Assembly (NCBI GenBank): GCA_003558065.1
Contig: PWMU01000007.1
Location: 8,894-72,893, forward strand
Length of the DNA: 64,000 nucleotides
Direction of reading: 5' to 3'
Source of the DNA: Opitutia bacterium
Lineage (GTDB): Bacteria; Verrucomicrobiota; Verrucomicrobiia; Opitutales; T3Sed10-336
Part shown: positions 41,652-60,036 of the stretch, in pieces
How positions within the stretch are numbered: position 1 is the first letter of the stretch
How the letters are laid out: each line of letters starts with the position of its first letter
The notes under the pieces: generated by a model
Seen by the model: the letters and a program-made list of their open reading frames with translations, nothing else
Databases searched by the model: none
What the model was told of the DNA's origin: nothing
Made by a program: the position numbers and the translations under genes

Positions 41652-41779
41652 GGCGGTGAAAGGAGAAAACCGCTTCACCATAGGGGCCTTGTGAATGGCG
41701 GGCAAACGTGTTTTACTTTTATTTTGCCCTTGAACCCCGGCGACGTGATGGATTTGATTGGGTTTTTTAAGGGATTTAT

Positions 41780-42733
41780 ATGAAAATTGACTTACCCGAC
41801 GGACGGCAGATTGATCTGCCTTTGGCGAAACTGGTGTGGATACCGGTCGCCGCGCTGGTTTTCGTGGCGCTCATCACCATGGTGTACCAGGTGGACACCG
41901 AGGAGGACGGGGTCGTGCTGCGATTCGGCAGGCATGTCGAAACGGTCGGTCCGGGCCTTCACTTTAAGCTGCCTTATCCGATCGATCAGGTCGAAAAGGT
42001 CAAAACCCGGATCGTGGATGTCCAGGAATTCGGCTACCGGAGCCAGGGAGGCCGCGCGCATACCACAAGGGGATACGAGGAGGAGAGCTCCATGCTGACC
42101 GGGGACCTCAATATCGTCGAGGCGTCCTGGGCGGTCCAGTTCCGGCGCGAAGAGCCCGAGGACTACCTGTTTAACGTCAAGGACGTCGAAGACACCCTCA
42201 GGGACATCTCGCAGTCGGTCATGCGTGAGGTGATGGGTGATCGCGCCAGCATTCCCATTCTCACTGTTGGGCGTGCGGAGATTCAGGATCGTGCCCGTGA
42301 GCTCATACAAAATTATGTGGACCAGTTCGAAATGGGTCTCCGCGTCAATGAGGTCAACCTGGAATCGGTCGAGCCGCCGCAACCGGTGATCGACGCCTTC
42401 CATGACTTGAACCGGGCCGAACAGGATGCGCAGCGGTTCTTTGAGGAGGCTTCCAGGGAATTCGAGGAGCGGGTGCCCCGGGCGCGCGGTGAGGCCGAGC
42501 GTACCGTGTTGGAAGCCGAAGGGTATCAACAGCGCCGGACCAACGTCGCCCGCGGGGAGGCGCAGCGATTTATCGATACCCTTGAAGCGTACGAACAGGC
42601 GCCGAATGTCACACGACGACGGATGTACCTGGAGACGATGGAAGACCAGTTGTCACACATGAAGGAGATCATCATTATCGACCAGGACATGAAATCGATC
42701 CTGCCTCACTTTAACCTGCGGGAGGACCAGTAG
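41780..42733 (+). CDS. hflK: FtsH modulator HflK
   Basis: VVLRFGR, GLHFKLPYPI, MLTGDLNIV, PRARGEA, RRRMYLET. Confidence 0.92.
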   Translation: MKIDLPDGRQIDLPLAKLVWIPVAALVFVALITMVYQVDTEEDGVVLRFGRHVETVGPGLHFKLPYPIDQVEKVKTRIVDVQEFGYRSQGGRAHTTRGYEEESSMLTGDLNIVEASWAVQFRREEPEDYLFNVKDVEDTLRDISQSVMREVMGDRASIPILTVGRAEIQDRARELIQNYVDQFEMGLRVNEVNLESVEPPQPVIDAFHDLNRAEQDAQRFFEEASREFEERVPRARGEAERTVLEAEGYQQRRTNVARGEAQRFIDTLEAYEQAPNVTRRRMYLETMEDQLSHMKEIIIIDQDMKSILPHFNLREDQ

Positions 42734-43834
42734 ATGCGAGCGATGTGCCAACAATCCGACGGAAAAAGCGGCAACGCTTCGGTGCCTATGGTCGCGGGAC
42801 TTGTCCTGCTCGCAGTGGGGGCGCTCATTGCGGTGAACTCAATGTACATTGTCAACGAATGGCAGCAGGGAGTGGTGACCCGTTTCGGCGAGGTCGTCGG
42901 GGAGCCGGTGACCGAGGCCGGGCTCCAGTTCAAGATGCCTTATCACCGGGTGCAGATTTACGACAAGCGCTTGTTGCGCTGGGACGGGAGTCCGACCTCC
43001 ACCATCACCCGCGACCGCAAGCGCGTTCAGATCGACGTGACCGCCCGGTGGCGGATCGACGACGCGCGGCGTTTCCGTGAAGCGATCAATCTCGAGGGCG
43101 AAGCCGACCGGCGCTTGAACAGCATCATCGATTCGGCCGTCCGCAACCGGATCGGGCAGTTCGATCTCTATCAGGTGATTCGCAGCAGCAACAGGATCCT
43201 CGAAGTTGACGAGGACTTTGAGATCGCGATGGATGAGGCGGAAATGGAGGAGATCGACCTCGACGAGATCGCCACGCTGGGCGCCGAAGTCGAGGAGTTG
43301 GAACGGGACGACGAGGGCAATTACCTGGCCGGCCGGCCGGTGGTGATCGACCACATCCTCGAAGCCGCCCGGGAGACACTTGATGATATGGATCTCGGTA
43401 TCCATCTGCAGGATATTCTTATCAAGCAGCTCAATTATACGAGCGAGATTGAGGAAACGGTTTTCGCGCAGATGAATGCGGAGCTTAATAAGATCTCCGC
43501 CGGTATCCGGTCCCACGGACAGCGACGCGCGGAAGAACGGCTCGGGGAGATGGAACGTGAGCTGGCGACCATCAACAGCCGGGCGCTCGAACGTGCGGCG
43601 AGGATCCGCGGGCAGGCCGACGCGGAAGCCACCACGACCTATGCGGATGCCTATAACCGGGATCCCCATTTTTACCAGTTCCTGCGGACGCTGGAGACTT
43701 ACGAAGATATTCTTGGCGACAACAGCAGGCTCGTGATCGGCACCGACAGTCCGCTTTTCGGTCTTTTTAAAGACCTGGCCACGATGGAGATTGATGTGGA
43801 GGAATTGCGGGATGGGAACCGGGACGACGATTGA
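42734..43834 (+). CDS. hflC: FtsH modulator HflC
   Basis: VVTRFGE, AGLQFKMP, DKRLLRWDG, IRGQADAEA, YNRDPHFYQFLRTLETY. Confidence 0.92.
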   Translation: MRAMCQQSDGKSGNASVPMVAGLVLLAVGALIAVNSMYIVNEWQQGVVTRFGEVVGEPVTEAGLQFKMPYHRVQIYDKRLLRWDGSPTSTITRDRKRVQIDVTARWRIDDARRFREAINLEGEADRRLNSIIDSAVRNRIGQFDLYQVIRSSNRILEVDEDFEIAMDEAEMEEIDLDEIATLGAEVEELERDDEGNYLAGRPVVIDHILEAARETLDDMDLGIHLQDILIKQLNYTSEIEETVFAQMNAELNKISAGIRSHGQRRAEERLGEMERELATINSRALERAARIRGQADAEATTTYADAYNRDPHFYQFLRTLETYEDILGDNSRLVIGTDSPLFGLFKDLATMEIDVEELRDGNRDDD

Positions 43835-46041: not shown

Positions 46042-47007
46042 ATGCCGTCCGAACACACTTTTATTGTTCCGGAAGGAATTCACCGGGAACGGGCGGACAA
46101 GGTGCTTGCATCGGCTTTTCCCGAGTTCAGTCGAACGGCCCTTCAACGGGCGTTTGATGCCGGACTGGTCTTTCGCGATGATACCTGTATCGGCAAGCGG
46201 GAAGGCGTCTCCGCGGGAGAACCTCTCAATTTTTCCCTCCCTGAAGCAAGGCCTTCCGAGTTGAAGGCGGTGTCCATGTCGCTCGATATCCTGACCGAGG
46301 ATGAGCATTTCCTTGCGGTCAACAAACCGAGCGGCCTGGTGATACACCCGGGTGCCGGAACGGGCGAGGACACGCTGGTGCACGGACTTCTGGCACATTG
46401 CAGGGGCAGCCTCAGCGGCGTCGGCGGTGTCGAGCGTCCGGGCATCGTTCACCGCCTGGACAAGGAAACGTCGGGGATTGTCCTGGTCGCCAAGACCGAT
46501 CGCGCGCACCGGGAACTGGCACGCCAGTTCAGTGATCGGGAGGTGAAGAAGCACTACCTCGCGCTGGTGGCCGGCGTGCCGGAACTCCTGTCGGGGACCC
46601 TGCGCGATGCGATCGGGCGCCATTCGGTTCACCGGCATAAAATGGCGGTCCAGCCCGAGGGAAAAGGCCGGGCCGCCCACACCGAGTGGGAACGGGTGGA
46701 GGTCTACGGCGCGCAGGCTTCATTGCTGCGATGCCGTATCCTGACCGGGCGCACCCACCAGATTCGCGTGCACCTGAGTTCACGCCGACACCCGCTGCTG
46801 GGCGACGCCGTTTATGGCTACCGTACCCGTGACGAGACGTTCCCGGAGCCGCGGCGAATCATGCTCCACGCGGAAACCCTGGGCTTCCGGCATCCGGCGA
46901 CCGGGGCAGCCATGACGCTGACGGCTCCGTTACCCGCGGATTTCAGGGAAATGATCGAAGCGTTGAAGCGGATCGCGGGGAGCGGGGCGAAAGAGGGACG
47001 AGGGTAA
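46042..47007 (+). CDS. RluA-family pseudouridine synthase (RluD-like)
   Basis: VNKPSGLVIHP, RPGIVHRLDKETSG, TGRTHQIRVH, MLHA; N-terminal S4-like region. Confidence 0.93.
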   Translation: MPSEHTFIVPEGIHRERADKVLASAFPEFSRTALQRAFDAGLVFRDDTCIGKREGVSAGEPLNFSLPEARPSELKAVSMSLDILTEDEHFLAVNKPSGLVIHPGAGTGEDTLVHGLLAHCRGSLSGVGGVERPGIVHRLDKETSGIVLVAKTDRAHRELARQFSDREVKKHYLALVAGVPELLSGTLRDAIGRHSVHRHKMAVQPEGKGRAAHTEWERVEVYGAQASLLRCRILTGRTHQIRVHLSSRRHPLLGDAVYGYRTRDETFPEPRRIMLHAETLGFRHPATGAAMTLTAPLPADFREMIEALKRIAGSGAKEGRG

Positions 47008-47036
47008 ACGTTGTCGGCCCTCGATCCCCTCCGGCC

Positions 47037-47357
47037 TTACTCGCCTTTGACCTTTTTTGTCAGGTTCGCGAGTTTGACTTCGAGAGATTTCACCCGGCTC
47101 TCGAGTTTGTGGAAATCTTCTTCGCTGACCGGCTTTTCCTTCTGCCACCAATCGCGGAGGGTCTGGTTGATCTCCTGGGTTGTCGATTCGAATTCCTTGC
47201 GGCTTTCCTCGACAATCTTCTCGGCCATTTTCTCGGCCTCCTGCCTTGAGATTTTCCCTTGCTCCACCATTTCATGAAGCATGTTCTGGACGTGCTCCTT
47301 GGTGATGACTGTGGCGCCGATTCCGGCGTAAACGGCTTTTTTCAATATATCCAACAT
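47037..47357 (-). CDS. Phasin-like (PHA granule-associated family) protein
   Basis: LKKAVYAGIGATVITKE...EMVEQGKISRQEA....LESRV..LE. Confidence 0.8.
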   Translation of the reverse strand: MLDILKKAVYAGIGATVITKEHVQNMLHEMVEQGKISRQEAEKMAEKIVEESRKEFESTTQEINQTLRDWWQKEKPVSEEDFHKLESRVKSLEVKLANLTKKVKGE

Positions 47358-47465
47358 GTGCGGGCTCCTTTGGGAATGGTTTTATGCTACTCAAGAAGTG
47401 GCCTAAAAGGGCTTCATTTTCAAGCAATTACTTGCAATTCGCAGCGGCGGGAGGAGGCGTCCGGC

Positions 47466-48689
47466 CTATTGGGCTTCCTGGGGAAGGTAGACCGTAAAGG
47501 TGCAGCCGTTGCCGGGCTGTGTTCTCAGGCGGACCGCTCCGCGGTTCCGTTTGACCAGCCGGGAGACGATGGCAAGGCCGAGCCCGGTTCCCTTGTCGGC
47601 TTTTTTGGTCGTGAAATACGGTTCGAAGATATCCTCGATAATGTCCTCCGGAATGCCTTGTCCCTTGTCGCTGATTGAGATGGCGACATAAGCGTGCTTG
47701 GGATCGAGAATGTCTCCATTAATGATGCGCTCGTTGGGGCCGTCCCTGAATTTTTGGGCTTCCGGAAGCTTGTCGAGTTTCCGGGCATCCACGGTAACCT
47801 TCTGGGCACCCGAGGAACTCTGCAGCGAATTGGTCACCAGGTTCAGGAGGATCTGCATCAGTTCCGAACCGTGGATGAAAACAGACGTATCCTCCTGCAA
47901 ATGTTCGATACTGACCATCGCCTCTTTGACGGCCGGGTGTACCTTGATCAGTTCCTTCAGGTCCTGCAGGATCAGGTTGACGGAGATGAGCTGTCCATCG
48001 GGGGCGTCGCGGCGAATCAGTTCCAGGTGGCGGTTCGATATGGAGCAACAGACCCGCACCTGCTGGGCTACCGTGGTCATGCTTTCCCGAACTTCCTCCA
48101 GCTCCTGGCCCGTCAGTTTCGACATCTCGCCCAGCCGGTGCATCAGCAGGTCGACGTACCCCCTGATGATGGTCAGCGGATTGTTAATGTCGTGAAGCAC
48201 CCCGGCATAAACCTGTGAGGAGGTGCGTGCCATCTCTTCCTGCATCATCAGGTTTTCGAGGTCCGCCTGGAGCGAGTCCAGCCGATGTACGGACTCGGCG
48301 ACATCCTCGGAGAGACGGCGGCTCTTCATGGCGTTGTCCACCGCCGTCCGCATGGCTTTAACGTTGAAAGGTTTGCCGATGTAATCGTGGGCGCCGTGTC
48401 TGAGGGCCTGCCGTGCCGTCTCCAGCGTCTCGTAGGCGGTCAGCATGATGACTTCCGTGTTCTTATCGATTTCCTTAAGCGCTTTGAGGACTTCGATACC
48501 GGACATGCCGGCCATCCGGATATCTAGAATGACCGTGTGGGGAGGAGTTTCCCTGGCGAGGGCAACGGCTTCCTCCCCGGAGTTGGCGAGGAGAACCCGG
48601 TAACGCTCTTCAAAGACGATCTTCAAAGACTCCCGGGGACCCTCCTCGTCGTCGACAATCAGCAGCGTTTCTTTTTCTTGATCTGTCAT
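47466..48689 (-). CDS. Hybrid receiver-histidine kinase (REC-HisKA-HATPase)
   Basis: LLIVDDE, VILDIRM, MLTAY, IGKP; LHDINNPL H-box; NLVTNS, DKGQGI, PYFTTK, GTGLGL. Confidence 0.93.
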   Translation of the reverse strand: MTDQEKETLLIVDDEEGPRESLKIVFEERYRVLLANSGEEAVALARETPPHTVILDIRMAGMSGIEVLKALKEIDKNTEVIMLTAYETLETARQALRHGAHDYIGKPFNVKAMRTAVDNAMKSRRLSEDVAESVHRLDSLQADLENLMMQEEMARTSSQVYAGVLHDINNPLTIIRGYVDLLMHRLGEMSKLTGQELEEVRESMTTVAQQVRVCCSISNRHLELIRRDAPDGQLISVNLILQDLKELIKVHPAVKEAMVSIEHLQEDTSVFIHGSELMQILLNLVTNSLQSSSGAQKVTVDARKLDKLPEAQKFRDGPNERIINGDILDPKHAYVAISISDKGQGIPEDIIEDIFEPYFTTKKADKGTGLGLAIVSRLVKRNRGAVRLRTQPGNGCTFTVYLPQEAQ

Positions 48690-48694
48690 AGCGG

Positions 48695-49924
48695 CTAAAA
48701 TGAAATTCCGACCGACCCGGTAAAGGCGTTTACGATCGCTTGATAATCCCCGTCCGCGGGACCTTCGTCCCCTCCGTCGCTGCCGCGCACCCGGCGTGTC
48801 GAGGAATAGCCGAATTGGTAGCCGAGATTCCAGCTCACATCACCGTTGCTCCAACCCACCCCGGCCATGCCAAGGTGCCGGTCGTCTTCGGGAACCGCAG
48901 GGGTGTAGTGATCGTCGGGGACCGTATTCTCACTGAACATATAGCCCACGCTGATGTGAAAATCGTTTTCAAAATACCGGGTGACGCCGGCTTTGTAAAC
49001 AATGCTTTCCTCCCATTGGAACACCAGTTCCTCGTCGCCGCTCTGGTCCCTACGCATCGTGACCGTGTCGAGGACGCTCCAATCCGTCCACTCGAGGTTC
49101 GCTTCGAGGTTCCAGTGTTCCCTGGGGCGGAAGGAGTATCCGATTACTGCGGATTTGGGGAACGGCAGATTGAGTGCGGCACGTTCTTCAGCATCGATCC
49201 CGGCGGCGGGAACGCGCGTGGTGGCGATGCCCTGAAGGGACGATCGCGTCGAACTGCGATAGGCGAGGCCGAAGGCGTGCCGCTCGGCCGGCGCCCAGCG
49301 CACTCCCAGAGTGTAACCGAAAAACTGATCCCTTCCGTCGAAGCGGAATTCGTCGCCGTTTGCGAGGGGATGGCCGGACTCGAAGATACCTTGCCGCAGA
49401 TCGAGCTGGGCGTCGTTGATAGTGAGGCCGCCGCCAATCGAAAGGGTCGGATTGATTTCCCAGGCGAGCACCGGCGTAATCTGCCGGTATTCCAGCCTGG
49501 ACCGGGTCGCGACGGTGCGGAAATCGGTATCATCGGGCCAGTCGTTCACCAACCCGAAGGGGGCATAGGCGCCGATCCCGAAGGTGAGCGGTGTGGTCTC
49601 GATCGGGACCGTAATGTAGGCGTTGGGCACAGCCTTGAAGCCGGCTTCGTTGGTGAAGCTTTCCCCGGTTTGGCTGCTGCGGTAATCGGCGTCGAAATCG
49701 ATCGCGTACACACCCGCCTGCATCGAGACGGCGGAGACCTGGGTGATGCCGGCCGGGTTGTAATAGACGGCGGCGGGCGTATCCGCTGTGGCCGCGAACG
49801 CATTGCCCCGCGCGGAGGCATGAGCGTCCATGTCGACCAATCGGAAGCCGAGCCCCGAGCCGGTCGTGGCGGAGGTTAAGAGAAGCAGCGCGGCCGCGGA
49901 GAATTGAATCGGCGTTTTTGTCAT
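48695..49924 (-). CDS. FadL/OmpP1/TodX family outer-membrane channel
   Basis: Signal peptide then GFRL...ASARGNAFAATADTPAAVYYNPAGIT hatch motif; APFGL; WTDWS; C-terminal Phe; ATG overlaps upstream TGA. Confidence 0.9.
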   Translation of the reverse strand: MTKTPIQFSAAALLLLTSATTGSGLGFRLVDMDAHASARGNAFAATADTPAAVYYNPAGITQVSAVSMQAGVYAIDFDADYRSSQTGESFTNEAGFKAVPNAYITVPIETTPLTFGIGAYAPFGLVNDWPDDTDFRTVATRSRLEYRQITPVLAWEINPTLSIGGGLTINDAQLDLRQGIFESGHPLANGDEFRFDGRDQFFGYTLGVRWAPAERHAFGLAYRSSTRSSLQGIATTRVPAAGIDAEERAALNLPFPKSAVIGYSFRPREHWNLEANLEWTDWSVLDTVTMRRDQSGDEELVFQWEESIVYKAGVTRYFENDFHISVGYMFSENTVPDDHYTPAVPEDDRHLGMAGVGWSNGDVSWNLGYQFGYSSTRRVRGSDGGDEGPADGDYQAIVNAFTGSVGISF

Positions 49925-51951
49925 GATAGTGGGAGGGTAGCCCGAATCCTGTTGGCGTGTTGTTTGTCCTGGGTGATCTGGAGTGAGCCTCCGTGCGATC
50001 GCAGAATTTTTTCCGCCACCGTGAGGCCGAGGCCGACTCCGACATTCCGGGTCGTGAAAAACGGTTTCAGGGCCTCTTCGGCGGCTTCCGGGCTGAAGCC
50101 GGCGCCCTGGTCCAGGAAGTCCACGGTGACCAGGCTGTTGCCCTCCGGGCCGCTCTTGATCTTGTTCCTGATGGCAATCTCGGGCGTTTCGCCTTCGGAT
50201 TGCAGGGCATTGAGCAGGATCTCCATGCAGGCGTACCTCAAGGTCGAAAGATCGCCCCGGATCCGGCAGTCGGCGAAGGACGGATCCCACTGGAGGATGC
50301 CGCCTTTTCCGCAAAAGTGACGCGCTTCGGCGAACGCTTGCTTCACCAGTTCTTTCAGGGATCCGGTACGATCGGTGCCGTTGCGGCTTTGCGAGAGGAG
50401 CAGCATCTGGTCGGCGAACCGCGAAATCCGCCGGATCTGGCGGTCCATGGTTTTGTCGAGGGAGTTCCGGAAGCCTTCTTTGTCGAAGTCGCTTTCGAGC
50501 AGTTGGTGATGCGTGCTCAGAGGAACCAGGGCATTGCGGATCTCGTGGGCGAAGCGTTCCGCGATCAGGGCAATGGTCTGGGCGTTGTGGGATTCGATCT
50601 CGACTTTCTTTGCCTTCTCGATCTGGGTGAAGTCTTCCATGAGCAGCATGGTGGCCGTTCCGGACTCGAGGTTTCGAGTCTGCAGGGGGAAGATCGAGAT
50701 GCGGAAGATGCGATTGTCGCCGGGAAAGTCGGCGAACATGAAAGGGGCAATGTCGTGCCCTTTCTGGACGACTTCATACAACTGGCAGGCGATCGTCGGC
50801 GGCAGGTCGGAGAATGCGACGGGCTCGTCCGGCTTTTTCTGCATGAAATCGTGAAGCGCCGGGTTGGCGTGCAGGACCTGCAGTTCGGGCGACATCACCA
50901 GGCAACCGCTCTTGAACTGGGCGATAACATCCGAAATCAATTCATGATTGCTGGCGAGCTCTTCATGAAGCCAGTTGTTCCGTATGGCCAGCCCGAGTTC
51001 CTCCATCAGGTGAAAAAGCAGTTGCAGTTCTTCGTCGCTGAAGTGCGCACCGGTGAGGCGGCCTCCTATGAGGGCGAGGCCCAGGCACCGCTCGCGGTCG
51101 ACGATGGGGATGGCGACTTCGCAACCGAGCAGTTCGAATTCCCGGTTGATCTCGTAATTCTCCTCGGAGAACAGATTGGTCTCGTAATCGGCTTTAAGAA
51201 TCTGGCCGCTTCGTGCCACCGTCCCGCCGATGCCGCCGGCCAGGTTGAGTTGAAAATACTGGAAGAGGTCGACTTCGATTCCTATCGAACAGATGCATTC
51301 GAGATCGGTGTCTTCTTCGTGCGGAGGCGTGAGACCCGGAAACGGCAGGTCGGGTTTCCGCAGCAGGATCGCCACCCGGTTGACGCTGATGACCTCGCGC
51401 AGCTTCAAAATGAACTGGTGAACAAAGGATTTCAGGTCGAGGGAGTACGAGAGGATGCGCGAGAAATCGCGCATGATCTCCAGCGCTGAGGCGGGCAGGG
51501 CCGGGCCCGGGCCGCGGGACGGGGGTGCCGGGACGAATGAGGCTGTGGCGCCGGCTTCCGGCCTGGTGACCTGCTTCGGCCGCGTTCCTACGGCCGGGCG
51601 CAGGTGTTTTTCGAGGATCCGGTTCACAAGCGGGCCGCGCAAGGGCTTCCGGAAAATGAAATCGGCCCCCTTCAGGTAGGCTTCCTCCTCCCAGACCGGC
51701 TCCTTCTCATCGGTGCAGATGAATAGTCCGACCGCCGGGGAGTTGCGACGTATAGCTTCAACGGCGCTGACGACGGACAGGTTCTTCAGGCCGGTATCAA
51801 CCAGGCAGGCTTCGGGGTGGGCGCTTTTCAGGAGGGGGAGGGCTTTGCTGAGGGAGGAGAGGGGGTGAAGGCGAAATTCGTTCTCGGGAAGAAGCACTTT
51901 GAGCGATTCCTGGAAACCGCTGTCTTCAGTTATGACGAGGATATGAATCAT
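49921..51951 (-). CDS. Soluble hybrid sensor kinase (atypical REC - GAF - PAS-like - HisKA - HATPase)
   Basis: N-terminal REC (CLVD, GADFIFRKP), GAF-like VAIPIVDRE..LGL...FSDEELQLL, AHEIRNAL, LLNALQ, DQGAGF, PFFTT, GVGLGL; no TM helix seen. Confidence 0.9.
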   Translation of the reverse strand: MIHILVITEDSGFQESLKVLLPENEFRLHPLSSLSKALPLLKSAHPEACLVDTGLKNLSVVSAVEAIRRNSPAVGLFICTDEKEPVWEEEAYLKGADFIFRKPLRGPLVNRILEKHLRPAVGTRPKQVTRPEAGATASFVPAPPSRGPGPALPASALEIMRDFSRILSYSLDLKSFVHQFILKLREVISVNRVAILLRKPDLPFPGLTPPHEEDTDLECICSIGIEVDLFQYFQLNLAGGIGGTVARSGQILKADYETNLFSEENYEINREFELLGCEVAIPIVDRERCLGLALIGGRLTGAHFSDEELQLLFHLMEELGLAIRNNWLHEELASNHELISDVIAQFKSGCLVMSPELQVLHANPALHDFMQKKPDEPVAFSDLPPTIACQLYEVVQKGHDIAPFMFADFPGDNRIFRISIFPLQTRNLESGTATMLLMEDFTQIEKAKKVEIESHNAQTIALIAERFAHEIRNALVPLSTHHQLLESDFDKEGFRNSLDKTMDRQIRRISRFADQMLLLSQSRNGTDRTGSLKELVKQAFAEARHFCGKGGILQWDPSFADCRIRGDLSTLRYACMEILLNALQSEGETPEIAIRNKIKSGPEGNSLVTVDFLDQGAGFSPEAAEEALKPFFTTRNVGVGLGLTVAEKILRSHGGSLQITQDKQHANRIRATLPLS

Positions 51952-51978
51952 TTCGTGCGGTTGGAGAGAGCCGATTTT

Positions 51979-52007
51979 TTAATAAATGGTTTCTATCCAT
52001 AGTGCAA
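51979..52007 (-). promoter_or_regulatory. Putative sigma70 promoter for the kinase-FadL-kinase operon
   Basis: Minus strand TTGCAC-N17-TATTAA in an AT-rich 76-bp gap. Confidence 0.45.
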
Positions 52008-52027
52008 CACTCGTTCTTGGCGGACAT

Positions 52028-53272
52028 TCACTTTGTGTTGACCCTGCGAAGAATCAGGCAGGCGTTGCTGCCGTCCAAGCCGGCGTTCAGGTTGACCGCG
52101 ACCTCGACCGGATAGCGGCGTTCCCTCAGCGGGACAAAATCGAGATTACATTCCAGGTCGGGCGTGTGGAGGTTGATCGTCGGGGGGATCGCCCGGTTCT
52201 TGATCGCCAAAGCACAGATCACCGTCTCGACCGGCCCGGCCGCCCCCGCCCAGTGACCGGTGACCGGCTTGGTTGAGCTGATCTGCAGGCGCTCGGCGTG
52301 GGAGCCGAATGCCTTCTTGATAGCGAGCGTCTCGGCGAGATCATTCTTCGCGGTCGCGGTCCCGTTTGCATTGAGGTAATCAACCTTTCCGGGATGGACC
52401 TTCGCGCGATGCAGCGCCTTTTCAAGCGAACCGAACTGCGGCAGGTCCTCCGGGGTGCCGTTGGCGCCGTCGAAGCTTCGACCGTGCGCCAGAATCTCCG
52501 CGTAAATCGGCGCTCCCCGGTTCAGGGCGAACGACAGTTCTTCGATGACCAGGAAAGCCGCCCCTTCCCCCAGGATGAACCCGTCCCGATTTCCGGCGAA
52601 CGGTTTCATGGCACGGGCGGGTTCCTCGGTTTCGCGACTCAGGTGGTGCGAGGCGCAAAGGATCCCCCACAGTCCGGCGGTTATCGGCGCCCCGCCCGCG
52701 CCGGCCACCGCGACATCGGCGTCGTCGTCCCGAATCAAACTGAATGCCTGTGCGATCGTCTCGGTGCCGGTGGAAGCGCCGGTGAGTAAGGTCTGGGTAT
52801 GGGCGCTGATTCCCAATTCATGGGCGATCGCCGCAGCGGAGCCCCCGGCCTGGGCGTTGAGCAAGGCGCGGAGCGTCCCGTTGTTCCGCCCCTCGCGTCC
52901 CGAAAATTCTTCCACCGACTGATCCTGTTGGCCCCGCCCCGGTGTCGAGCCGGCGACGATTCCGATCCGGTCGGGGGAGACGCGGCTCAGGTCGATGGCC
53001 GCGTCGCGTGTCGCCAGCCTCGCCGCGGCAATTCCGTACTGCGTGGCGGGGGGCGTGCTGTTGGCCAGCGCGGGGGCCAGATAGTCCGCCGGATTAAAGC
53101 CGCGCAGTTGGCAGGCCACTTTGGACGGAAGGCCGGAGGTGTCGATCCGGCTGACGAAGGACGCCGCGCTTTGGCCGGTGCGGAGATGGGCCCAGAAGGT
53201 GTCGAGGTTGAAACCGTTGGGGGCGATAACTCCGATTCCGGTAATGACGACTCTTCTGTTCCAGGATTCCAT
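52028..53272 (-). CDS. FabF-like beta-ketoacyl synthase homologue lacking catalytic Cys and first His
   Basis: RRVVITGIG, MKPF..NRDGFILGEGA, STKPVTGH, IPPTINL; TGA166STG replaces TACTSG and YLNAN303GT replaces YVNAHGT. Confidence 0.9.
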   Translation of the reverse strand: MESWNRRVVITGIGVIAPNGFNLDTFWAHLRTGQSAASFVSRIDTSGLPSKVACQLRGFNPADYLAPALANSTPPATQYGIAAARLATRDAAIDLSRVSPDRIGIVAGSTPGRGQQDQSVEEFSGREGRNNGTLRALLNAQAGGSAAAIAHELGISAHTQTLLTGASTGTETIAQAFSLIRDDDADVAVAGAGGAPITAGLWGILCASHHLSRETEEPARAMKPFAGNRDGFILGEGAAFLVIEELSFALNRGAPIYAEILAHGRSFDGANGTPEDLPQFGSLEKALHRAKVHPGKVDYLNANGTATAKNDLAETLAIKKAFGSHAERLQISSTKPVTGHWAGAAGPVETVICALAIKNRAIPPTINLHTPDLECNLDFVPLRERRYPVEVAVNLNAGLDGSNACLILRRVNTK

Positions 53273-53401
53273 GTGGGTTGAAGATTCGTGCCTGATTCGG
53301 GTGAAAGGTTCCTGAGCGGCTTGAAACGAGGCGACTTGGTCCAGATAAATTCATTTGGCTGAAGAATGCCCGAATTCGCGAGCCAATAAAAGGCGGAGTG
53401 C

Positions 53402-54187
53402 CTAATTTTTTTGAAGGGGTCGCAGCCCGAGGCTGCCGAAGGCCAGAACGCTTCGGCTGACCGCCCCTTTCTTCAGGCAGGCGATGTCTGACAAGCTCTC
53501 CTGCCCGTCTTCATCCGGAAGTTGGAACTGGAAGCGGAAAAGGCCTCCCGGGGTTTTCCGATAAAGGCTGCCCGGGTTGAGCCGTGCCGGGACGGTTTCT
53601 TCGAGGGGGGTGTCGGGACGGGTGGGAAACGGAAAGTTGAGGTTGTTCACTTCGGTCCGCGGGTTGCCGGTCGAAGCGAGTGTTCCGGCAAACCGGGCTG
53701 AAATCGCGGCGGCGGCCTCCAGCGACGTGCGGGTTTCGGGATCCAGTGCGTTCGGGTCGGCCTTGAGTCGCTGAAAGGCTTCCGCCGGAAGGTGCTGGGA
53801 AAGGGCGAGAGCGGGGATTCCCAACAGCGCCCCTTCGAGTGCGGCGGCCACGGTTCCGGAATTCAGGATGAGCGGCAGGCCCGCGTTGAGGCCGATGTTG
53901 ATTCCTGAGACAACCAGGTCGGGGCGATTGGGCAGCAGATGGGCAATCCCCAGATTGACGCAGTCGGACGGAGTGCCGTCGACCGCCCACGCGGGACAGG
54001 GAAAGGTCTCGATTCTCCGGACGGCCACATCCCGGTACCGGCTCATGGCTTTCCCGATCCAGCTCTGTTCATCCGCCGGCGCGACTGCGCAGACATCGGC
54101 AACCTCGTTCAGCGCGAGCACCAGCTGCCGGAAAAACGCGGCGTCGACGCCGTCGTCGTTTGTGACCAGAATGGTGGGAGGCGGCAT
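53402..54187 (-). CDS. surE: 5'/3'-nucleotidase SurE
   Basis: ILVTNDDG, GTPSDCV, DLVVSGINIG, SGTVAAALEG. Confidence 0.94.
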   Translation of the reverse strand: MPPPTILVTNDDGVDAAFFRQLVLALNEVADVCAVAPADEQSWIGKAMSRYRDVAVRRIETFPCPAWAVDGTPSDCVNLGIAHLLPNRPDLVVSGINIGLNAGLPLILNSGTVAAALEGALLGIPALALSQHLPAEAFQRLKADPNALDPETRTSLEAAAAISARFAGTLASTGNPRTEVNNLNFPFPTRPDTPLEETVPARLNPGSLYRKTPGGLFRFQFQLPDEDGQESLSDIACLKKGAVSRSVLAFGSLGLRPLQKN

Positions 54188-54251
54188 GTGCCGTGACGGG
54201 GTCGGCTGGCAGCCGGTCGGACTTCGGCGGTAGCCTAAGCCCGACAGACTC

Positions 54252-55469
54252 CTAGTTTTCGATTCGCACCTCCGGGGGGTTCGCGTAATCGTTCCAGAGG
54301 CGTTCCAATTCCGTTGCGTCGGCTTCGCCGTCCATCACCGCGAAACGGTAGCGGGCGGTATAGGGGGAGTCCGGCGTGATCTCCCAGTCGCCCAATTGGG
54401 AGGGCGCATAGCAGAAGAAGGGTTCGCGGGGATGCAGGCGAACCGGTTGCGGGAAACGGAAGTTGTCGGGATGGCAGAATATGGCGATGCCCGTTCGTTC
54501 GCCGTCGACGTCGCCGCTGATGTGCGTCCAGCGGGTTCGTGTGCCGTTGCCTTCCCGCCGGTCGGTCTCGCCTTCGGATGTCAGGAAGTGGGTGTTCTCT
54601 TCGCCCACCCAGTCCTCGTGACCCCGGAATCCGAGACCGCCGTAGTGATGCTCGACCAGAATGAGCGGGTCGGGGGTCGCGGTTTCCTGGTGTGATTTGA
54701 GATCGAAGAGCCGATACTCCCTCTCGGCGTCAGCGGTCTGGTAAAGGGCGACTTCCCAGGTCTCGTTCAGAGCGACCACCGGCTCGTCGCCCGACAGATC
54801 CAGAAACCGGTGACGCGACCGGAAGCCGCCATGCACCGGACCGCTCCAGGTCTTATCGATCTCTTCGAACTCGACCTTTCCGGTTTCGGAGTGCATGTTC
54901 CAGAAGTCGGGAGAGCGTCCCTGAAATCGCGTGCGTGTCCACGGAGACCAGATGCCCTGGTGGTGGGTGTGACGCTCCGGATAGCTGGCGGTCACGGTTC
55001 GCCCGGAAGGACTCAACACCGGGTGCAGGAAGCCGCCGCGCTTGAGGACGGGGTTGATGTCGGGCCTGGGGAACGGCCGCTCTTCGGCCTGATAGTACAG
55101 AGCCGGCGTTCCGTGGACCGTGAAACGGAGGCGCCCTCGGTCTTCAACGACTTCAACCCAGGGGCTGACGTTGTCGGTCGGGGCTTTCCCGGCCAGGCGG
55201 AAGGTGGCTTTCGCGCCTTGTTCCAGATAGGGAAGCAGGAAAGCAGCTTGACCGTCCTTCGAAACCTGGAGGGGGATCCGCTTCCCGTCCGCGTTTTCCA
55301 GGGCGCGGGAGTCACGGGCTCCTTCCGGGAGCTCGAAGGTGACCACGGTGTCGCGCCGTTCGTAATCCCCGGCTGAGACCGTAATTCTGAGCGATTCCGC
55401 CGAAAGGAGACAAGCGGGAGCGACGGCCATGGCAGCAACGGCGAGCGAAGTGAATGTGGAGTTTCGCAT
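54252..55469 (-). CDS. Secreted DUF6807-like protein (family often mislabelled PmoA)
   Basis: Signal peptide; RGGFLHPV, HTHHQGIW, DFWN, HYGGLGFRG, HPDNFRFPQP. Confidence 0.75.
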   Translation of the reverse strand: MRNSTFTSLAVAAMAVAPACLLSAESLRITVSAGDYERRDTVVTFELPEGARDSRALENADGKRIPLQVSKDGQAAFLLPYLEQGAKATFRLAGKAPTDNVSPWVEVVEDRGRLRFTVHGTPALYYQAEERPFPRPDINPVLKRGGFLHPVLSPSGRTVTASYPERHTHHQGIWSPWTRTRFQGRSPDFWNMHSETGKVEFEEIDKTWSGPVHGGFRSRHRFLDLSGDEPVVALNETWEVALYQTADAEREYRLFDLKSHQETATPDPLILVEHHYGGLGFRGHEDWVGEENTHFLTSEGETDRREGNGTRTRWTHISGDVDGERTGIAIFCHPDNFRFPQPVRLHPREPFFCYAPSQLGDWEITPDSPYTARYRFAVMDGEADATELERLWNDYANPPEVRIEN

Positions 55470-55502
55470 GACAAGCTTTTATGCCGCAAGCACAAGTGTT
55501 CT

Positions 55503-55847
55503 TCAAGGGAATTCTCGGGGATCGCGTTCGGTTGTGTCCAAAGTCGAACACACTTGCAACAGACCGCGAATCTCTTCTTCCGGACCTTCGTGGTGCTGTT
55601 CTCCGGCCAGTTTCAGGGCGGCATCCAGGAAGGGGCGGGCGCGATCCTTGCGGCCCAGTTCGAGGTAGGCTTTTCCCAGCAGGATCCTCGGAACCATCCA
55701 TTCCGGTTTCTTTTCGGCGCAAAAGGTGAGGGGGACGATCGCTTCGGCGTACTGTTTTTCCGCGAAACAGGCCTGGCCGAAGCTGAACTGAAAAAGCTCG
55801 TTGTCAGGGTCCTTTTCCACCCGTTTTCTGTGTTCCGACAGGTTCAT
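55503..55847 (-). CDS. Small tetratricopeptide-repeat protein
   Basis: DPDNELFQFSFGQA..A..PL....KPEWMVPRILLGKAYL. Confidence 0.8.
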   Translation of the reverse strand: MNLSEHRKRVEKDPDNELFQFSFGQACFAEKQYAEAIVPLTFCAEKKPEWMVPRILLGKAYLELGRKDRARPFLDAALKLAGEQHHEGPEEEIRGLLQVCSTLDTTERDPREFP

Positions 55848-55849
55848 GG

Positions 55850-56557
55850 CTAATCAATGAAGACAGCGACAGCGGTGGCGTTGTCACGGCCTCCGCGTTC
55901 GTTCGCAAGGTCCACCAGTTCCCGAACGATGCTCTCCGGTGTGGCCGCCGCGAGCATGCGCGGGTGGATTTCCTCCGCGGTAATGGCCAGGGTGATACCG
56001 TCGGTGCAGAGGAGCAACCGGTCCCCGGAAGCCGGCTGGTAGGCGTAGGTGTCGATCTCGAGATCCTCGATCTGTCCCAGGCAGCGGGTGAGAACGTGGC
56101 TGTGCCGGCGCGGGATGGGCACCAGGGGATTGTAGTCGGGACGGTTCCGGATTTCCTCCTCCAGGGTGTGGTCCCTGGTCAGTTTTTCGAATCCGTCGGA
56201 ACGAAAGCGGTAGACGGCGGTATCACCGACGTGGGCGATATCGAGTGACTCTTCGCCGAGCGCGACCGTCGTCATCGTCGTGCCGATTCCCGTGTCCGGA
56301 CTCAGACTTTTTCCCAGCAGCAGGATCTCGAGGTTCATTTTCCCGAACAGCGTCTTCATGTTGAGCAGAACGCGTCCCCGGCCGAGTTCCTTTTCCAGTA
56401 GCTCAACAGTCAGTTGGCTGGCGCGCGCTCCTTCGGGAAGTCCCCCCAGCCCGTCGGCAACGGCGAATACCGACTGACGTTCGTCGATCAGGTACGCGTC
56501 TTCGTTTCGTTCGCGAACGCGTCCGATGTCACTCAAGCCGTAACTGCTGACATGCAT
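55850..56557 (-). CDS. PP2C-family Ser/Thr phosphatase
   Basis: GRVRERNED, VADGLGG, HVGD, LTRDH, LLCTDG, GGRDNAT. Confidence 0.94.
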   Translation of the reverse strand: MHVSSYGLSDIGRVRERNEDAYLIDERQSVFAVADGLGGLPEGARASQLTVELLEKELGRGRVLLNMKTLFGKMNLEILLLGKSLSPDTGIGTTMTTVALGEESLDIAHVGDTAVYRFRSDGFEKLTRDHTLEEEIRNRPDYNPLVPIPRRHSHVLTRCLGQIEDLEIDTYAYQPASGDRLLLCTDGITLAITAEEIHPRMLAAATPESIVRELVDLANERGGRDNATAVAVFID

Positions 56558-57902: not shown

Positions 57903-58148
57903 CGGATTCGCTTGCCGTGTGGATTTCAGGGACCGGATTCCAAGGCTTATACAAAGTCTATCGGGCGGTGCCGACAATAAAAATAACTCGACCCGGAACC
58001 GCGCGCGGGGCGAGGGGCCAGAGGGCAAATGACTCAGGCCGCCCGTCAAATCGGGGTCGACAATGGCTTCGCGTAGAGTGAGAGTGAGGGTGGGTGGGGC
58101 CTTGCCCGGATTTTGTTACAACAACCGACGTTCTTTAATCTTCACGGT

Positions 58149-59879
58149 ATGATCATTCCATTGCTTCGGAGGATTGCGGTGTTCGCCCTCGGGGTGTTCC
58201 TCGTGTTTCTTATCTTGTCGTATGTCTTCGCGCATTTGACCGAGACATTCTTTGAGTTTCCGCTGCCGTACTTCCTGGCCGGCGTGGCCGCGGCGGTCGC
58301 CTGCGCGGTCCTGCTCTTGCGCAACGCGTATAAAAACGACGACTACCTCACCGGGTGGGACGAGAGGGCTTTCCTGGTGATTTCGTCCCTGTTCTGTCTG
58401 GCGTTGAGCGCCGCGTCATTGGCCGCCCAGTTGCTGCTGTTGCGGCACGGCTTCTGGGGGTTGGTTCTTTTCGGGTACGTTCCTCTGGCGGCCGCGCTGA
58501 TCTACGTGGCGGCGGCGGCGCTGCGATTCAAGGAGGCCGGGGAATTCCCGAAGGAGTATCCGGAGTATACGAAGAAGCAGCGGGCGAAGCGCGCGAGTCA
58601 GGGCCGTCGCGAATGGGCCGCCGCGGCCGCCGCGCTCGCGGTGGCCGCGGTCTCCCTCTACCAGGTGTTCCCGGAGGAGTTGCCGCTTGTCGAGGCCGAG
58701 GACGAGGATCGGGCGGAACCCCGCGCGGAGCTCCGCCCCCGGGATTTCGAGGGGGACTGGAGCTCTCCGGCTTTTCTGTTGCGGTTGGCCGAAGCCGGAC
58801 ATGCCGAAGCGCAGTACCTTCTCGGACAGGTTTACTACGATGAGGACCACCCGAAGTACTGGAAGACCCCGGAACGGGCGGTCCGCTACCTCGAACAGGC
58901 CGCTGCGCAGGGACACGTCGATGCGGCCGTTGATCTCGGTTACATCTACCGGGACGGCTACGGAGAGATTCAGGATGATGCCCGGGCCTTTGAGTATTTC
59001 ATGAAGGCTGTCGAAGCCGGGAATGCGGTCGCCCAAAGGGAGATCGCGGGCCTGTATCGCTTCGGAAGAGGCGTGGAGGCGGACGAAACCGCTGCCTATC
59101 GCTACCTCGTGAAGGCCGCGGAAAGCGGCGACACGCAGGCCGAAACGGAGTTGGCCGAAGCTTATCAGCGGGGGCGCGGGGTCGACCGGGATCCGGAACA
59201 GGCTTACTTCTGGTTCTCCCGGGCCGCCCGCGGCGGCCATCCCGCCGCCCAGAATGACCTCGCGCTCAGTTACCTTAGGGGTATCGGGGTGGAACGCGAT
59301 CCCGAGGAGGGCGTCCGCTGGCTCGAGCGGGCCGCCGAACAGGACTTTCAGCCGGCCGTATTCAACCTGGGAATGCTCTACTACCGGGGCAGTTACGTTT
59401 CGACCGATTACGACCTCAGTTACCACTACCTTTCCAGGCTCGCCGACGCAGGTCATGTGCTGGGGCATTTCTATCTGGGGTCGCTTTACTACGAGGGGCG
59501 CGGGGTTGCCCGGGACAGGGAGAAGGCGTACAGTCAGTTTCAAGCCGCCGCCGCCAGAGGACACTTGCCGAGTATGATGAACCTCGCGGGCCTCTACCTC
59601 GAGGGGGGCGGTGTCCAGCGCGATCTGGAGAGAGGCCTCGGCTACATGGAGAGGGCCGCCCTTCGCGGCCTGGCGGGCGCGCAGTGGCGCATGGGGAAAA
59701 TCTTCAACGAGGGGACATTCGTCATGCGCGATCCGGTCGTGGCTCAGAAATGGTTTCTACTGGCTGCCGACCAGGGGCATCAGGAAGCCAAAAGCATGAG
59801 CGACGCCCTCGACGAGGAGCTCAGCCGGGAGGACCGGGAAATGGCTCGAACCCTGGCGAATCGTGCGGCGACCCAGTGA
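58149..59879 (+). CDS. Sel1-repeat protein with N-terminal multi-TM region
   Basis: About 5 TM helices then about 10 repeats of AQ..LG..Y..G.GV..D...A..W...AA..G. Confidence 0.9.
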   Translation: MIIPLLRRIAVFALGVFLVFLILSYVFAHLTETFFEFPLPYFLAGVAAAVACAVLLLRNAYKNDDYLTGWDERAFLVISSLFCLALSAASLAAQLLLLRHGFWGLVLFGYVPLAAALIYVAAAALRFKEAGEFPKEYPEYTKKQRAKRASQGRREWAAAAAALAVAAVSLYQVFPEELPLVEAEDEDRAEPRAELRPRDFEGDWSSPAFLLRLAEAGHAEAQYLLGQVYYDEDHPKYWKTPERAVRYLEQAAAQGHVDAAVDLGYIYRDGYGEIQDDARAFEYFMKAVEAGNAVAQREIAGLYRFGRGVEADETAAYRYLVKAAESGDTQAETELAEAYQRGRGVDRDPEQAYFWFSRAARGGHPAAQNDLALSYLRGIGVERDPEEGVRWLERAAEQDFQPAVFNLGMLYYRGSYVSTDYDLSYHYLSRLADAGHVLGHFYLGSLYYEGRGVARDREKAYSQFQAAAARGHLPSMMNLAGLYLEGGGVQRDLERGLGYMERAALRGLAGAQWRMGKIFNEGTFVMRDPVVAQKWFLLAADQGHQEAKSMSDALDEELSREDREMARTLANRAATQ

Positions 59880-59885
59880 CGTGGT

Positions 59886-59920
59886 GGCGAGGGGCGAGGG
59901 GCGAGGGGCGTGGGGCGAGG
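59886..59920 (+). repeat. Heptamer tandem repeat (GGCGAGG x5)
   Basis: ggcgagg ggcgagg ggcgagg ggcgtgg ggcgagg. Confidence 0.85.
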
Positions 59921-59953
59921 GGGCGAAATTGCCTCAGTCGCCAACTTTGAGGT

Positions 59954-59982
59954 TTGACAGGGCGGATGGCCGAACACATTCT
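59954..59982 (+). promoter_or_regulatory. Putative sigma70 promoter
   Basis: TTGACA-N17-CATTCT, 54 bp upstream of ATG 60037. Confidence 0.55.
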
Positions 59983-60036
59983 ATGTGCGTCACTTCAGAT
60001 CCTAATCAACAATCCTACACAAGCGTATCCCCTACT

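Follow-up and report, generated by a model that had tools for sequence, protein, structure and literature searches.

A candidate lipid-signal gene cluster of Verrucomicrobiota that links a FadL channel to histidine kinases and acyl enzymes, and its putatively reduced copy in an Opitutia bacterium

The diffusible signal factor (DSF, Rpf) system is defined by the crotonase-family synthase RpfF together with RpfC and RpfG. Photopyrones, dialkylresorcinols and alkylquinolones are made by KAS III-like synthases, and their readers are LuxR- or LysR-type regulators, not kinases. Likewise, the acyl-homoserine lactone (AHL) signal of Sinorhizobium is read by a LuxR-type regulator. For the Verrucomicrobiota, which are abundant in soils, waters and guts, almost nothing is to our knowledge known of cell-cell or lipid signalling, and the literature that we searched gave nothing on it. 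Here we analyse a locus of an Opitutia bacterium of this phylum (assembly GCA_003558065.1), located at positions 47466-53272 of a 64,000-nucleotide stretch of contig PWMU01000007.1 that is hereafter called the window. The locus encodes a disabled ketosynthase paralogue (KASx; KAS, beta-ketoacyl-ACP synthase; ACP, acyl carrier protein), two histidine kinases (HK1 and HK2) and an outer-membrane channel of the FadL family, and we propose that it may be a reduced form of a cluster that recurs throughout the phylum.

Two further described systems bear directly on this locus. According to the accessible part of PMC8578825, the phcBSRQ operon of Ralstonia encodes the methyltransferase that synthesises methyl 3-hydroxymyristate, a sensor kinase, a soluble protein combining a receiver (REC) domain with a kinase, and a REC protein. 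FadL of Sinorhizobium is described, in the accessible part of PMC9938287 (which lists Krol and Becker 2014 among its references), as mediating the uptake of long-chain AHL signals. The sequence-only reading of the window that our analysis followed up had known of no described system composed like the present locus, and indeed none was found in the literature that could be reached, with most subscription journals and supplements lying outside that reach. The family name of the seven-transmembrane (7TM) kinases discussed below led, in the accessible portions of the literature, just to surveys of archaeal and eukaryotic kinases, and the literature on ketosynthase pseudoenzymes held nothing on such a system.

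The genes of the locus were read from the list of open reading frames (ORFs), and their domains were assigned with Pfam. KASx (52028-53272; 414 amino acids) is a FabF-like paralogue with the domains PF00109 and PF02801. A spacer of 76 bp, read from the sequence (51952-52027), separates it from HK1 (49921-51951; 676 amino acids), a soluble histidine kinase with the domain order REC-GAF-PAS-HisKA-HATPase. The FadL/TodX-family channel (48695-49924; 409 amino acids counted from the ATG; PF03349) and HK2 (47466-48689; 407 amino acids), a REC-HisKA-HATPase kinase without a further sensor domain, follow. The TGA of HK1 overlaps the ATG of the channel gene in the ATGA at 49924-49921, and the FadL stop codon and the ATG of HK2 are 5 bp apart (48690-48694). 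Four co-directional genes on the minus strand with precisely these junctions had been described in the sequence-only reading, in exact agreement with the ORF list and the sequence. Its statement that no acyl-CoA ligase or beta-oxidation gene is nearby was equally borne out, for none was found within ∼8 kb on either side of the locus. A promoter and terminator scan of 46900-53600 remained near the shuffled expectation, with 2 promoter-like elements versus 1.3 expected and 12 terminator-like elements versus 8.3.

The sequence-only reading had staked its proposal on conservation of the kinase-FadL-kinase triad or of its KAS linkage, and both the triad and its association with a dedicated KAS proved to be conserved across Verrucomicrobiota. 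A scan with the FadL alignment, taking one genome per species, gave 271 relatives, and the best 80 loci were kept, nearly all of which are titled as Verrucomicrobiota metagenome-assembled genomes (MAGs). Neighbours were called by tblastn with identity and coverage thresholds of our own choosing, and the ORF clusters include some antisense artefacts. An orthologue of HK2 (40-79% identity, 97-100% coverage) lies directly downstream of FadL in 63 of the 77 evaluable loci, and an orthologue of HK1 directly upstream in 36 of 72. The modules further upstream were counted in the 52 loci with at least 6.5 kb of upstream sequence, 27 of which bear HK1. These 27 loci divide without remainder into 14 with KASx and 13 with a fusion of a LuxD-like domain to a methyltransferase; none has both and none has neither. 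When all 18 KASx loci are considered, a gene for a membrane methyltransferase resembling isoprenylcysteine O-methyltransferase (ICMT) stands just upstream of KASx in 15, and a gene for a 7TM kinase (PF16927) is present in 17, the single exception being the sister species of our bacterium. Wherever both genes are complete (16 of 16 loci), the 7TM kinase gene directly follows KASx; at this position the window has its 76-bp spacer. Similarly, the 7TM kinase gene lies downstream of the fusion in 13 of 14 fusion loci, and a gene for a GAF-REC protein is often next. Approximate median spacings are 14 bp between ICMT and KASx, -6 bp between the 7TM kinase and HK1, and 16 bp between FadL and HK2. Judged from gene content and order, the linkage is far beyond chance, and the conserved cluster couples FadL and the kinases with a predicted acyl-ACP-using enzyme, usually together with a methyltransferase.

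Close relatives display the cluster in several states. In the sister species, a member of the same genus, the four genes recur in unchanged order with identities of 64-79%. Neither it nor the window has the ICMT gene or the cluster 7TM kinase, and in both the KAS is dead. Another member of the window's own genus (G002) carries FadL, ICMT, KAS and the start of the 7TM kinase gene. A relative from another genus of the same family (G003) has the ICMT-like methyltransferase, KAS, 7TM kinase, HK1, FadL and the start of HK2, and one from a third genus (G007) has FadL, ICMT, KAS, 7TM kinase, HK1, an HK1-like gene and HK2. In a genome of another family (G032), HK1-FadL-HK2 is divergent from a LuxD-like acyltransferase-SAM methyltransferase fusion (SAM, S-adenosylmethionine), and in G004, G011 and G023 FadL stands without cluster genes.

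The KASx protein has both KAS domains (PF00109, 8.7e-33; PF02801, 7.2e-28) and misses the FabF equivalog model TIGR03150, with 337.7 bits against a cut-off of 493.75. Among solved structures it is nearest to true FabF enzymes (2e-83, alignment to PDB 4ls5_A), not to KS-beta chains. The roles of the FabF active-site residues are taken from the accessible part of PMC7138838. In the active-site columns of the 4ls5_A alignment, A166 of KASx occupies the position of Cys163, an Asn (N303) replaces His303, and the gate loop reads GLDG, compared with GFGG, including Phe400, in the other 17 family members. His340 and Lys335 are retained, and both are invariant across the 19 window-type KAS proteins. 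The earlier description of a FabF homologue without its catalytic residues therefore applies to two of the three triad residues, Cys163 and His303, and not to His340. Furthermore, the window KASx departs from the other 17 family members at 12 of the 70 columns in which these do not vary, while leave-one-out controls with the other KAS proteins gave 0-6 such changes.

The disabled state, which the sequence-only reading had made part of its candidate system, is not a feature of the system as a whole. Of the 19 proteins, 10 carry Ser at the nucleophile position and 7 carry Cys, and Ala stands there only in the 2 proteins of the window and the sister species; these two alone have lost His303, and the other 17 keep both His residues. 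In the trees, the KASx clade is separate from the housekeeping FabF of the same genome (contig C171), which keeps its Cys, HGT and GH motifs, and the window and sister proteins pair on a long stem (0.5-0.6) within a Cys-bearing Opitutales subclade. By this comparison, the ancestral cluster KAS is a predicted enzyme with Cys and both His residues, and the dead form is derived in the window and sister species. The genome of our bacterium contains two more, very divergent KAS paralogues (C102:50676-51401 and C99:9965-10708; tree branches of 3.7 and 4.3), and by motif pattern the former has no Cys-containing active-site motif.

KASx is an intact ORF in both species, with an identity of 64% by tblastn and 66% in a MAFFT pair alignment. 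The ratio of nonsynonymous to synonymous substitution rates (dN/dS, NG86 method) between the two species is 0.22, which is only a rough estimate because dS, at ∼1.2, is near saturation. By the same method, values of 0.18 and 0.20 were obtained for the neighbouring SurE and PP2C genes, and of 0.10-0.14 for HK1, FadL and HK2. The dN of KASx is 0.26 compared with 0.14-0.16 for the kinases and FadL, meaning that KASx evolves faster. These substitution rates indicate that KASx is under purifying selection. Since the ORF is intact in two species and dN/dS is 0.22, KASx appears to be kept for some function, and the disabled protein probably has a non-catalytic role. Prediction of a complex of the window KAS with residues 1-460 of HK1, run without controls, gave a score of 0.31 against a mark of 0.32.

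Both kinases of the triad have the H-box His and the HATPase_c catalytic domain that identify histidine kinases. In HK1, the HATPase_c (48.8 bits) and GAF (30.6 bits) domains score above the Pfam cut-offs, and the Response_reg (28.0 bits), HisKA (22.7 bits, cut-off 26.9) and PAS_4 (18.1 bits) domains just below them. All 34 of 34 orthologues share its H-box residue His469, and 20 of the 34 also keep the REC residue Asp52. HK2 matches Response_reg (2.8e-27), HisKA (9.8e-08, 32.4 bits) and HATPase_c (2.9e-22, 79.6 bits). The channel matches PF03349 with 1.6e-51 and 175.6 bits against a cut-off of 29.7, its residues 20-381 covering profile positions 6-391 of 421. An AlphaFold model (pLDDT 79.1) displays the FadL-type barrel fold with an N-terminal hatch; in a Foldseek search it comes closest to E. 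coli FadL (3pgs_A, E 6e-30, TM 0.85), with TodX at TM 0.72. The NPA(G) motif of the FadL hatch is well kept in 11 orthologues, where N56 does not vary and P57, A58 and G59 each reach a conservation of at least 90%; titles of PDB entries among the Foldseek matches name N33A, P34A and delta-NPA mutants. By profile and predicted fold, the window channel belongs to the FadL/TodX/OmpP1 family, for which transport of hydrophobic substrates is predicted.

A second locus of the same genome carries the other type of producer module. On contig C67 (L115:6546-11881, minus strand), genes for a fusion protein of 571 amino acids, a 7TM-GAF kinase of 720 and a GAF-REC protein of 499 form a trio that adjoins NfeD. 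The fusion joins a LuxD-like acyl-ACP thioesterase/acyltransferase to a SAM methyltransferase. In an alignment of the LuxD-like domain with the myristoyl-ACP thioesterase structure 1tht, the nucleophile motif and the His and Asp residues are retained; the domain also matches an exosortase-associated hydrolase model weakly, with 34.6 bits, far below the family cut-off. Relatives of the fusion numbered 284; the 120 of these that were listed bear generic names alone, and no PhcB-like name is among them. The 7TM kinases of one cluster type are homologous over their full length to those of the other, with 24% identity. Residues 29-717 of the C67 kinase align with positions 9-679 of the PrsK model TIGR02916 at 147.1 bits, the cut-off of 300 not being reached. 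The ICMT-like protein of the KASx clusters scores 98.7 bits against the isoprenylcysteine O-methyltransferase model and weakly (25.1 bits, far below the family cut-off) against the lipid A phosphate methyltransferase LmtA. A search of our bacterium's own genome gave no clear ICMT orthologue, the best hit being a 24.5-bit partial match within a 403-amino-acid frame on contig C76.

The trio is also present in the sister species (G001; fusion 79% identical) and in G004. No full-length match to the fusion was found in the ICMT-KAS relatives G003 (87% complete), G007 (97%) and G002 (96%); in G002 the fusion query gave just two weak methyltransferase-domain matches. At the NfeD-adjacent site (L115:12131-12754, L024:2704-3360 and L023:7253-7729), our bacterium (G000) and the sister species (G001) hold the trio, G002 holds FadL-ICMT-KAS-7TM kinase and G004 holds FadL alone. 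This distribution suggests module replacement at one chromosomal position, and the fusion has probably taken over production from the KAS in the window and sister species.

Across the phylum, 401 genomes with a completeness of 90% or more were sampled, and 70 of them had a FadL profile match with E of at most 1e-50. The cluster is present in several genomes that consist of one contig, for example G080, G110, G315 and G345. Twenty more distant loci were picked in rank order, one per genome. A REC-kinase directly follows FadL in 11 of the 20, and in 10 of these 11 a divergent KAS is found, then a 7TM-PAS kinase and a GAF-PAS kinase. The cluster KAS proteins of these distant classes form a clade of their own with Cys, His303 and Asn at the His340 position. 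A Cys-His-Asn triad is normally associated with KAS III/chalcone-synthase enzymes; here it stands on a FabF-like scaffold (L127-L132, L134 and L137-L139). A common dedicated ancestor of this clade and KASx was considered and is unsupported by an unrooted tree of 31 rows, and independent recruitment of the two cluster-linked KAS clades is possible.

The explanation that we favour, and to which we assign about an even chance, is that the locus in the window is a reduced, lineage-specific version of a signalling cluster conserved in Verrucomicrobiota, serving an acyl-derived hydrophobic signal that passes through FadL. The full cluster would comprise three parts: an acyl "producer", being either a dedicated KAS, usually after an ICMT-like membrane methyltransferase, or a LuxD-methyltransferase fusion; a PrsK-like 7TM-GAF histidine kinase; and the triad of REC-GAF-PAS kinase, FadL and REC-kinase. 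The producer module would yield a hydrophobic acyl-derived molecule, and where a methyltransferase is present the product would probably be methylated, for example a fatty-acid methyl ester. This molecule would cross the outer membrane through FadL and be perceived by the GAF-PAS kinase, the 7TM kinase or both, and the REC-bearing kinases would relay a phosphoryl signal in a multi-kinase pathway to an output encoded elsewhere. The window and sister lineage would have lost the ICMT gene and the cluster 7TM kinase, as well as Cys163, His303 and the GFGG gate of its KAS. In this lineage, the LuxD-methyltransferase of contig C67 is the probable producer and the 7TM-GAF kinase encoded next to it the probable membrane kinase, together with the GAF-REC protein.

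The sequence-only reading had proposed that FadL imports a hydrophobic signal that is read by the kinases. A role in lipid or hydrophobic signalling is indeed the most economical interpretation, but the methyltransferase and 7TM kinase, or the LuxD fusion, of complete clusters point to synthesis of the signal besides its import. The cluster is probably a still undescribed lipid-signal system. A more far-reaching version, which we put forward tentatively, is that of a phylum-wide Verrucomicrobiota autoinducer system, in which a dedicated FadL channel and a three-kinase relay would sense a self-made acyl-derived lipid. Its synthase would have been swapped at least twice, between a Cys-His-Asn KAS, a KAS with an ICMT-like methyltransferase and a LuxD-type thioesterase-methyltransferase fusion, and the displaced KAS of the window would be kept as a pseudoenzyme that has gained a new, non-catalytic role within the same pathway.

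When compared with known systems, the cluster would be a two-component, lipid-signal-type system that is built from different parts. We know of no report of a rhizobial fadL gene embedded between sensor genes, whereas the FadL gene of the window appears to be translationally coupled to kinases. A FadL homologue likewise carries a hydrophobic quorum-sensing signal across the outer membrane in Sinorhizobium, as described in the accessible part of PMC9938287. The operon logic of Phc in Ralstonia solanacearum is also alike, with a methyltransferase-made signal that is a fatty-acid methyl ester, a membrane kinase and a soluble REC+kinase protein without a DNA-binding domain, and the REC-HisKA-HATPase order of HK2 matches a PhcR-like architecture, a likeness of architecture only (accessible part of PMC8578825). 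In addition, the thioesterase-methyltransferase fusion of our bacterium's own genome adjoins a multi-pass membrane kinase. However, the Phc operon (phcB, phcS, phcR and phcQ), in so far as it is laid out in the accessible part of PMC8578825, is without FadL, KAS and a second GAF-PAS kinase. Conversely, neither a single-REC PhcQ-like gene nor a LysR regulator is a conserved neighbour here, and the methyltransferase families differ, being of ICMT type or fused to LuxD in the present clusters. PrsK of the XrtA/PEP-CTERM system resembles the 7TM-GAF kinase over its whole length (TIGR02916, below the cut-off), but the neighbours of the 7TM kinase here are acyl enzymes and FadL, not exosortase genes.

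Further partial likenesses concern the single components. The TodX channel is encoded near TodS/TodT, and the cytoplasmic multi-domain PAS kinase of that system, with its internal receiver and two kinase modules, resembles HK1 plus HK2 in outline; the catabolic operon found there is, however, absent here, and the window channel is structurally nearer to FadL than to TodX. Chain-length factors (KS-beta) and KS0 domains share the KAS fold but carry another residue in place of the nucleophile Cys or of the His in the HGT motif, and KASx of the window has both replacements. Yet a chain-length factor is defined by an adjacent active KS-alpha partner and a Gln at the Cys position, whereas the window region has no second KAS gene and KASx has Ala at that position. 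Signals of the photopyrone type involve a dedicated condensing enzyme, distinct from the housekeeping FabF, beside sensing genes, as is the case here. From DSF signalling the cluster differs in that no crotonase or HD-GYP gene is present among the annotated conserved neighbour clusters or in the window region.

Several observations weigh against the signalling cluster that we favour. The compared genomes are related MAGs, so that the counts overstate independent events. In 14 of 77 loci no REC-kinase adjoins FadL, and in three relatives of the same family among these FadL stands alone; 3 of the 18 KASx loci lack ICMT, so the methyltransferase is not universal, and the ICMT query gave one partial match only in the 10 distant KAS-bearing loci. 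The mix of Cys, Ser and Ala in the 19 cluster KAS proteins does not fit one simple chemistry, and in the 31-row tree FabF groups with KASx against the distant KAS clade. No conserved DNA-binding output regulator was found among the annotated neighbour clusters of the 80 loci. Moreover, FadL is the sole member of its family in the genome, as a single match was returned by the genome search, and it could serve the beta-oxidation genes on contig C42, where acyl-CoA dehydrogenase, 3-hydroxyacyl-CoA dehydrogenase and thiolase genes stand together. The last point fits a nutritional or environmental system, with FadL as a general importer, kinases that sense exogenous fatty acids or control the uptake gene, and the KAS or LuxD-methyltransferase genes as regulated targets in lipid metabolism and not as signal synthases. 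The structural proximity of the channel to the long-chain fatty-acid FadL of E. coli, rather than to aromatic-hydrocarbon channels, is in agreement with this idea as well. We nevertheless regard it as unlikely, although it deserves serious attention: acyl-CoA ligase and beta-oxidation genes are not conserved neighbours among the 80 loci and are missing from the window region, and anabolic-type enzymes such as KAS and an acyl-ACP thioesterase suit production better than catabolism. It also leaves unexplained why all 27 HK1 loci have one of two non-homologous acyl-enzyme and methyltransferase modules beside a 7TM kinase.

The weak matches to envelope proteins could be read in another way, namely as envelope-lipid homeostasis in which the 7TM kinase senses the membrane, the methyltransferase and acyl enzymes remodel an envelope lipid and FadL moves this lipid at the outer membrane, with no diffusible signal. 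The inclusion of LmtA in the ICMT family, the end-to-end alignment of the 7TM kinase with PrsK of the PEP-CTERM envelope system and the likeness of the LuxD-like domain to an exosortase-associated hydrolase would all accord with this. These three matches are, however, far below their family cut-offs, lipid A, exosortase and lipid-transport genes are not conserved neighbours in the 80 loci, and FadL channels are known for the inward passage of hydrophobic molecules (accessible part of PMC7728783), which makes this explanation improbable. We hold to be just as doubtful the suggestion that the dead KAS serves as an acyl- or acyl-ACP-binding receptor that feeds the lipid status to the adjacent REC-GAF-PAS kinase. 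Its preservation in two species under the selection estimated above, its stay beside HK1 while ICMT and the 7TM kinase went, and its retained His340 and Lys335 would suit a receptor. On the other hand, this would apply to 2 of the 19 cluster KAS proteins, with an enzyme as the ancestral state; the altered family-invariant positions include the acyl-admitting gate loop, and the near-saturated dS leaves the selection estimate rough. Lastly, a chance adjacency of unrelated genes with the KAS as a decaying pseudogene could draw on the lost catalytic residues and the raised dN, but it is extremely improbable, as the same linkage is found again in different orders and classes, with proteins 25-50% identical and the genes partly rearranged, and the KAS frame is open in both species with dN far below dS.

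A widespread and tightly organised cluster with interchangeable acyl-enzyme/methyltransferase modules represents a concrete, testable candidate for a signal system. If the signalling role that we favour holds, the cluster would provide an instance of an outer-membrane channel reserved for signalling, and of a ketosynthase that has naturally become a pseudoenzyme after its job probably passed to a non-homologous enzyme. If the genes serve nutrient sensing instead, they would still constitute a new regulatory arrangement for fatty-acid uptake.

Some of the loci that were inspected have additional features. Two tandem FadL genes of this subfamily are followed by a REC-kinase at L105:8556-11185. 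Among the loci with FadL and REC-kinase only (L096:9145-9816, L101:6218-7606 and L106:8589-9800), an OmpR-type regulator with a HAMP kinase lies divergently upstream in some genomes, which are labelled Chthoniobacterales or Spartobacteria, and in another genome the divergent upstream gene encodes a REC-adenylate/guanylate cyclase. It is possible that these divergent genes are outputs of the relay. Some records with this cluster (L038, L050, L068, L074-L076, L091, L080 and L106) bear titles of MAGs from Methylomirabilota, Kapaibacterium, Proteobacteria, Klebsiella or Akkermansia muciniphila. These titles may be binning or naming errors, because the FadL and kinase genes of these records resemble Verrucomicrobiota loci.

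The surroundings of the locus in the window contain three further gene groups. Upstream of KASx, at 53402-56557 on the minus strand, lie genes for SurE, a DUF6807 protein with a signal-like N-terminus and a PP2C phosphatase, an order that is common to the window and the sister species only. At 39954-43834, two tandem SPFH/Band 7 genes come after, and are divergent from, a gene for an ABC1 atypical kinase. Finally, at 58113-62226, the gene for a Sel1-repeat protein of 588 amino acids with seven repeats overlaps the start of a gene for an immunoglobulin I-set protein of 787 amino acids.

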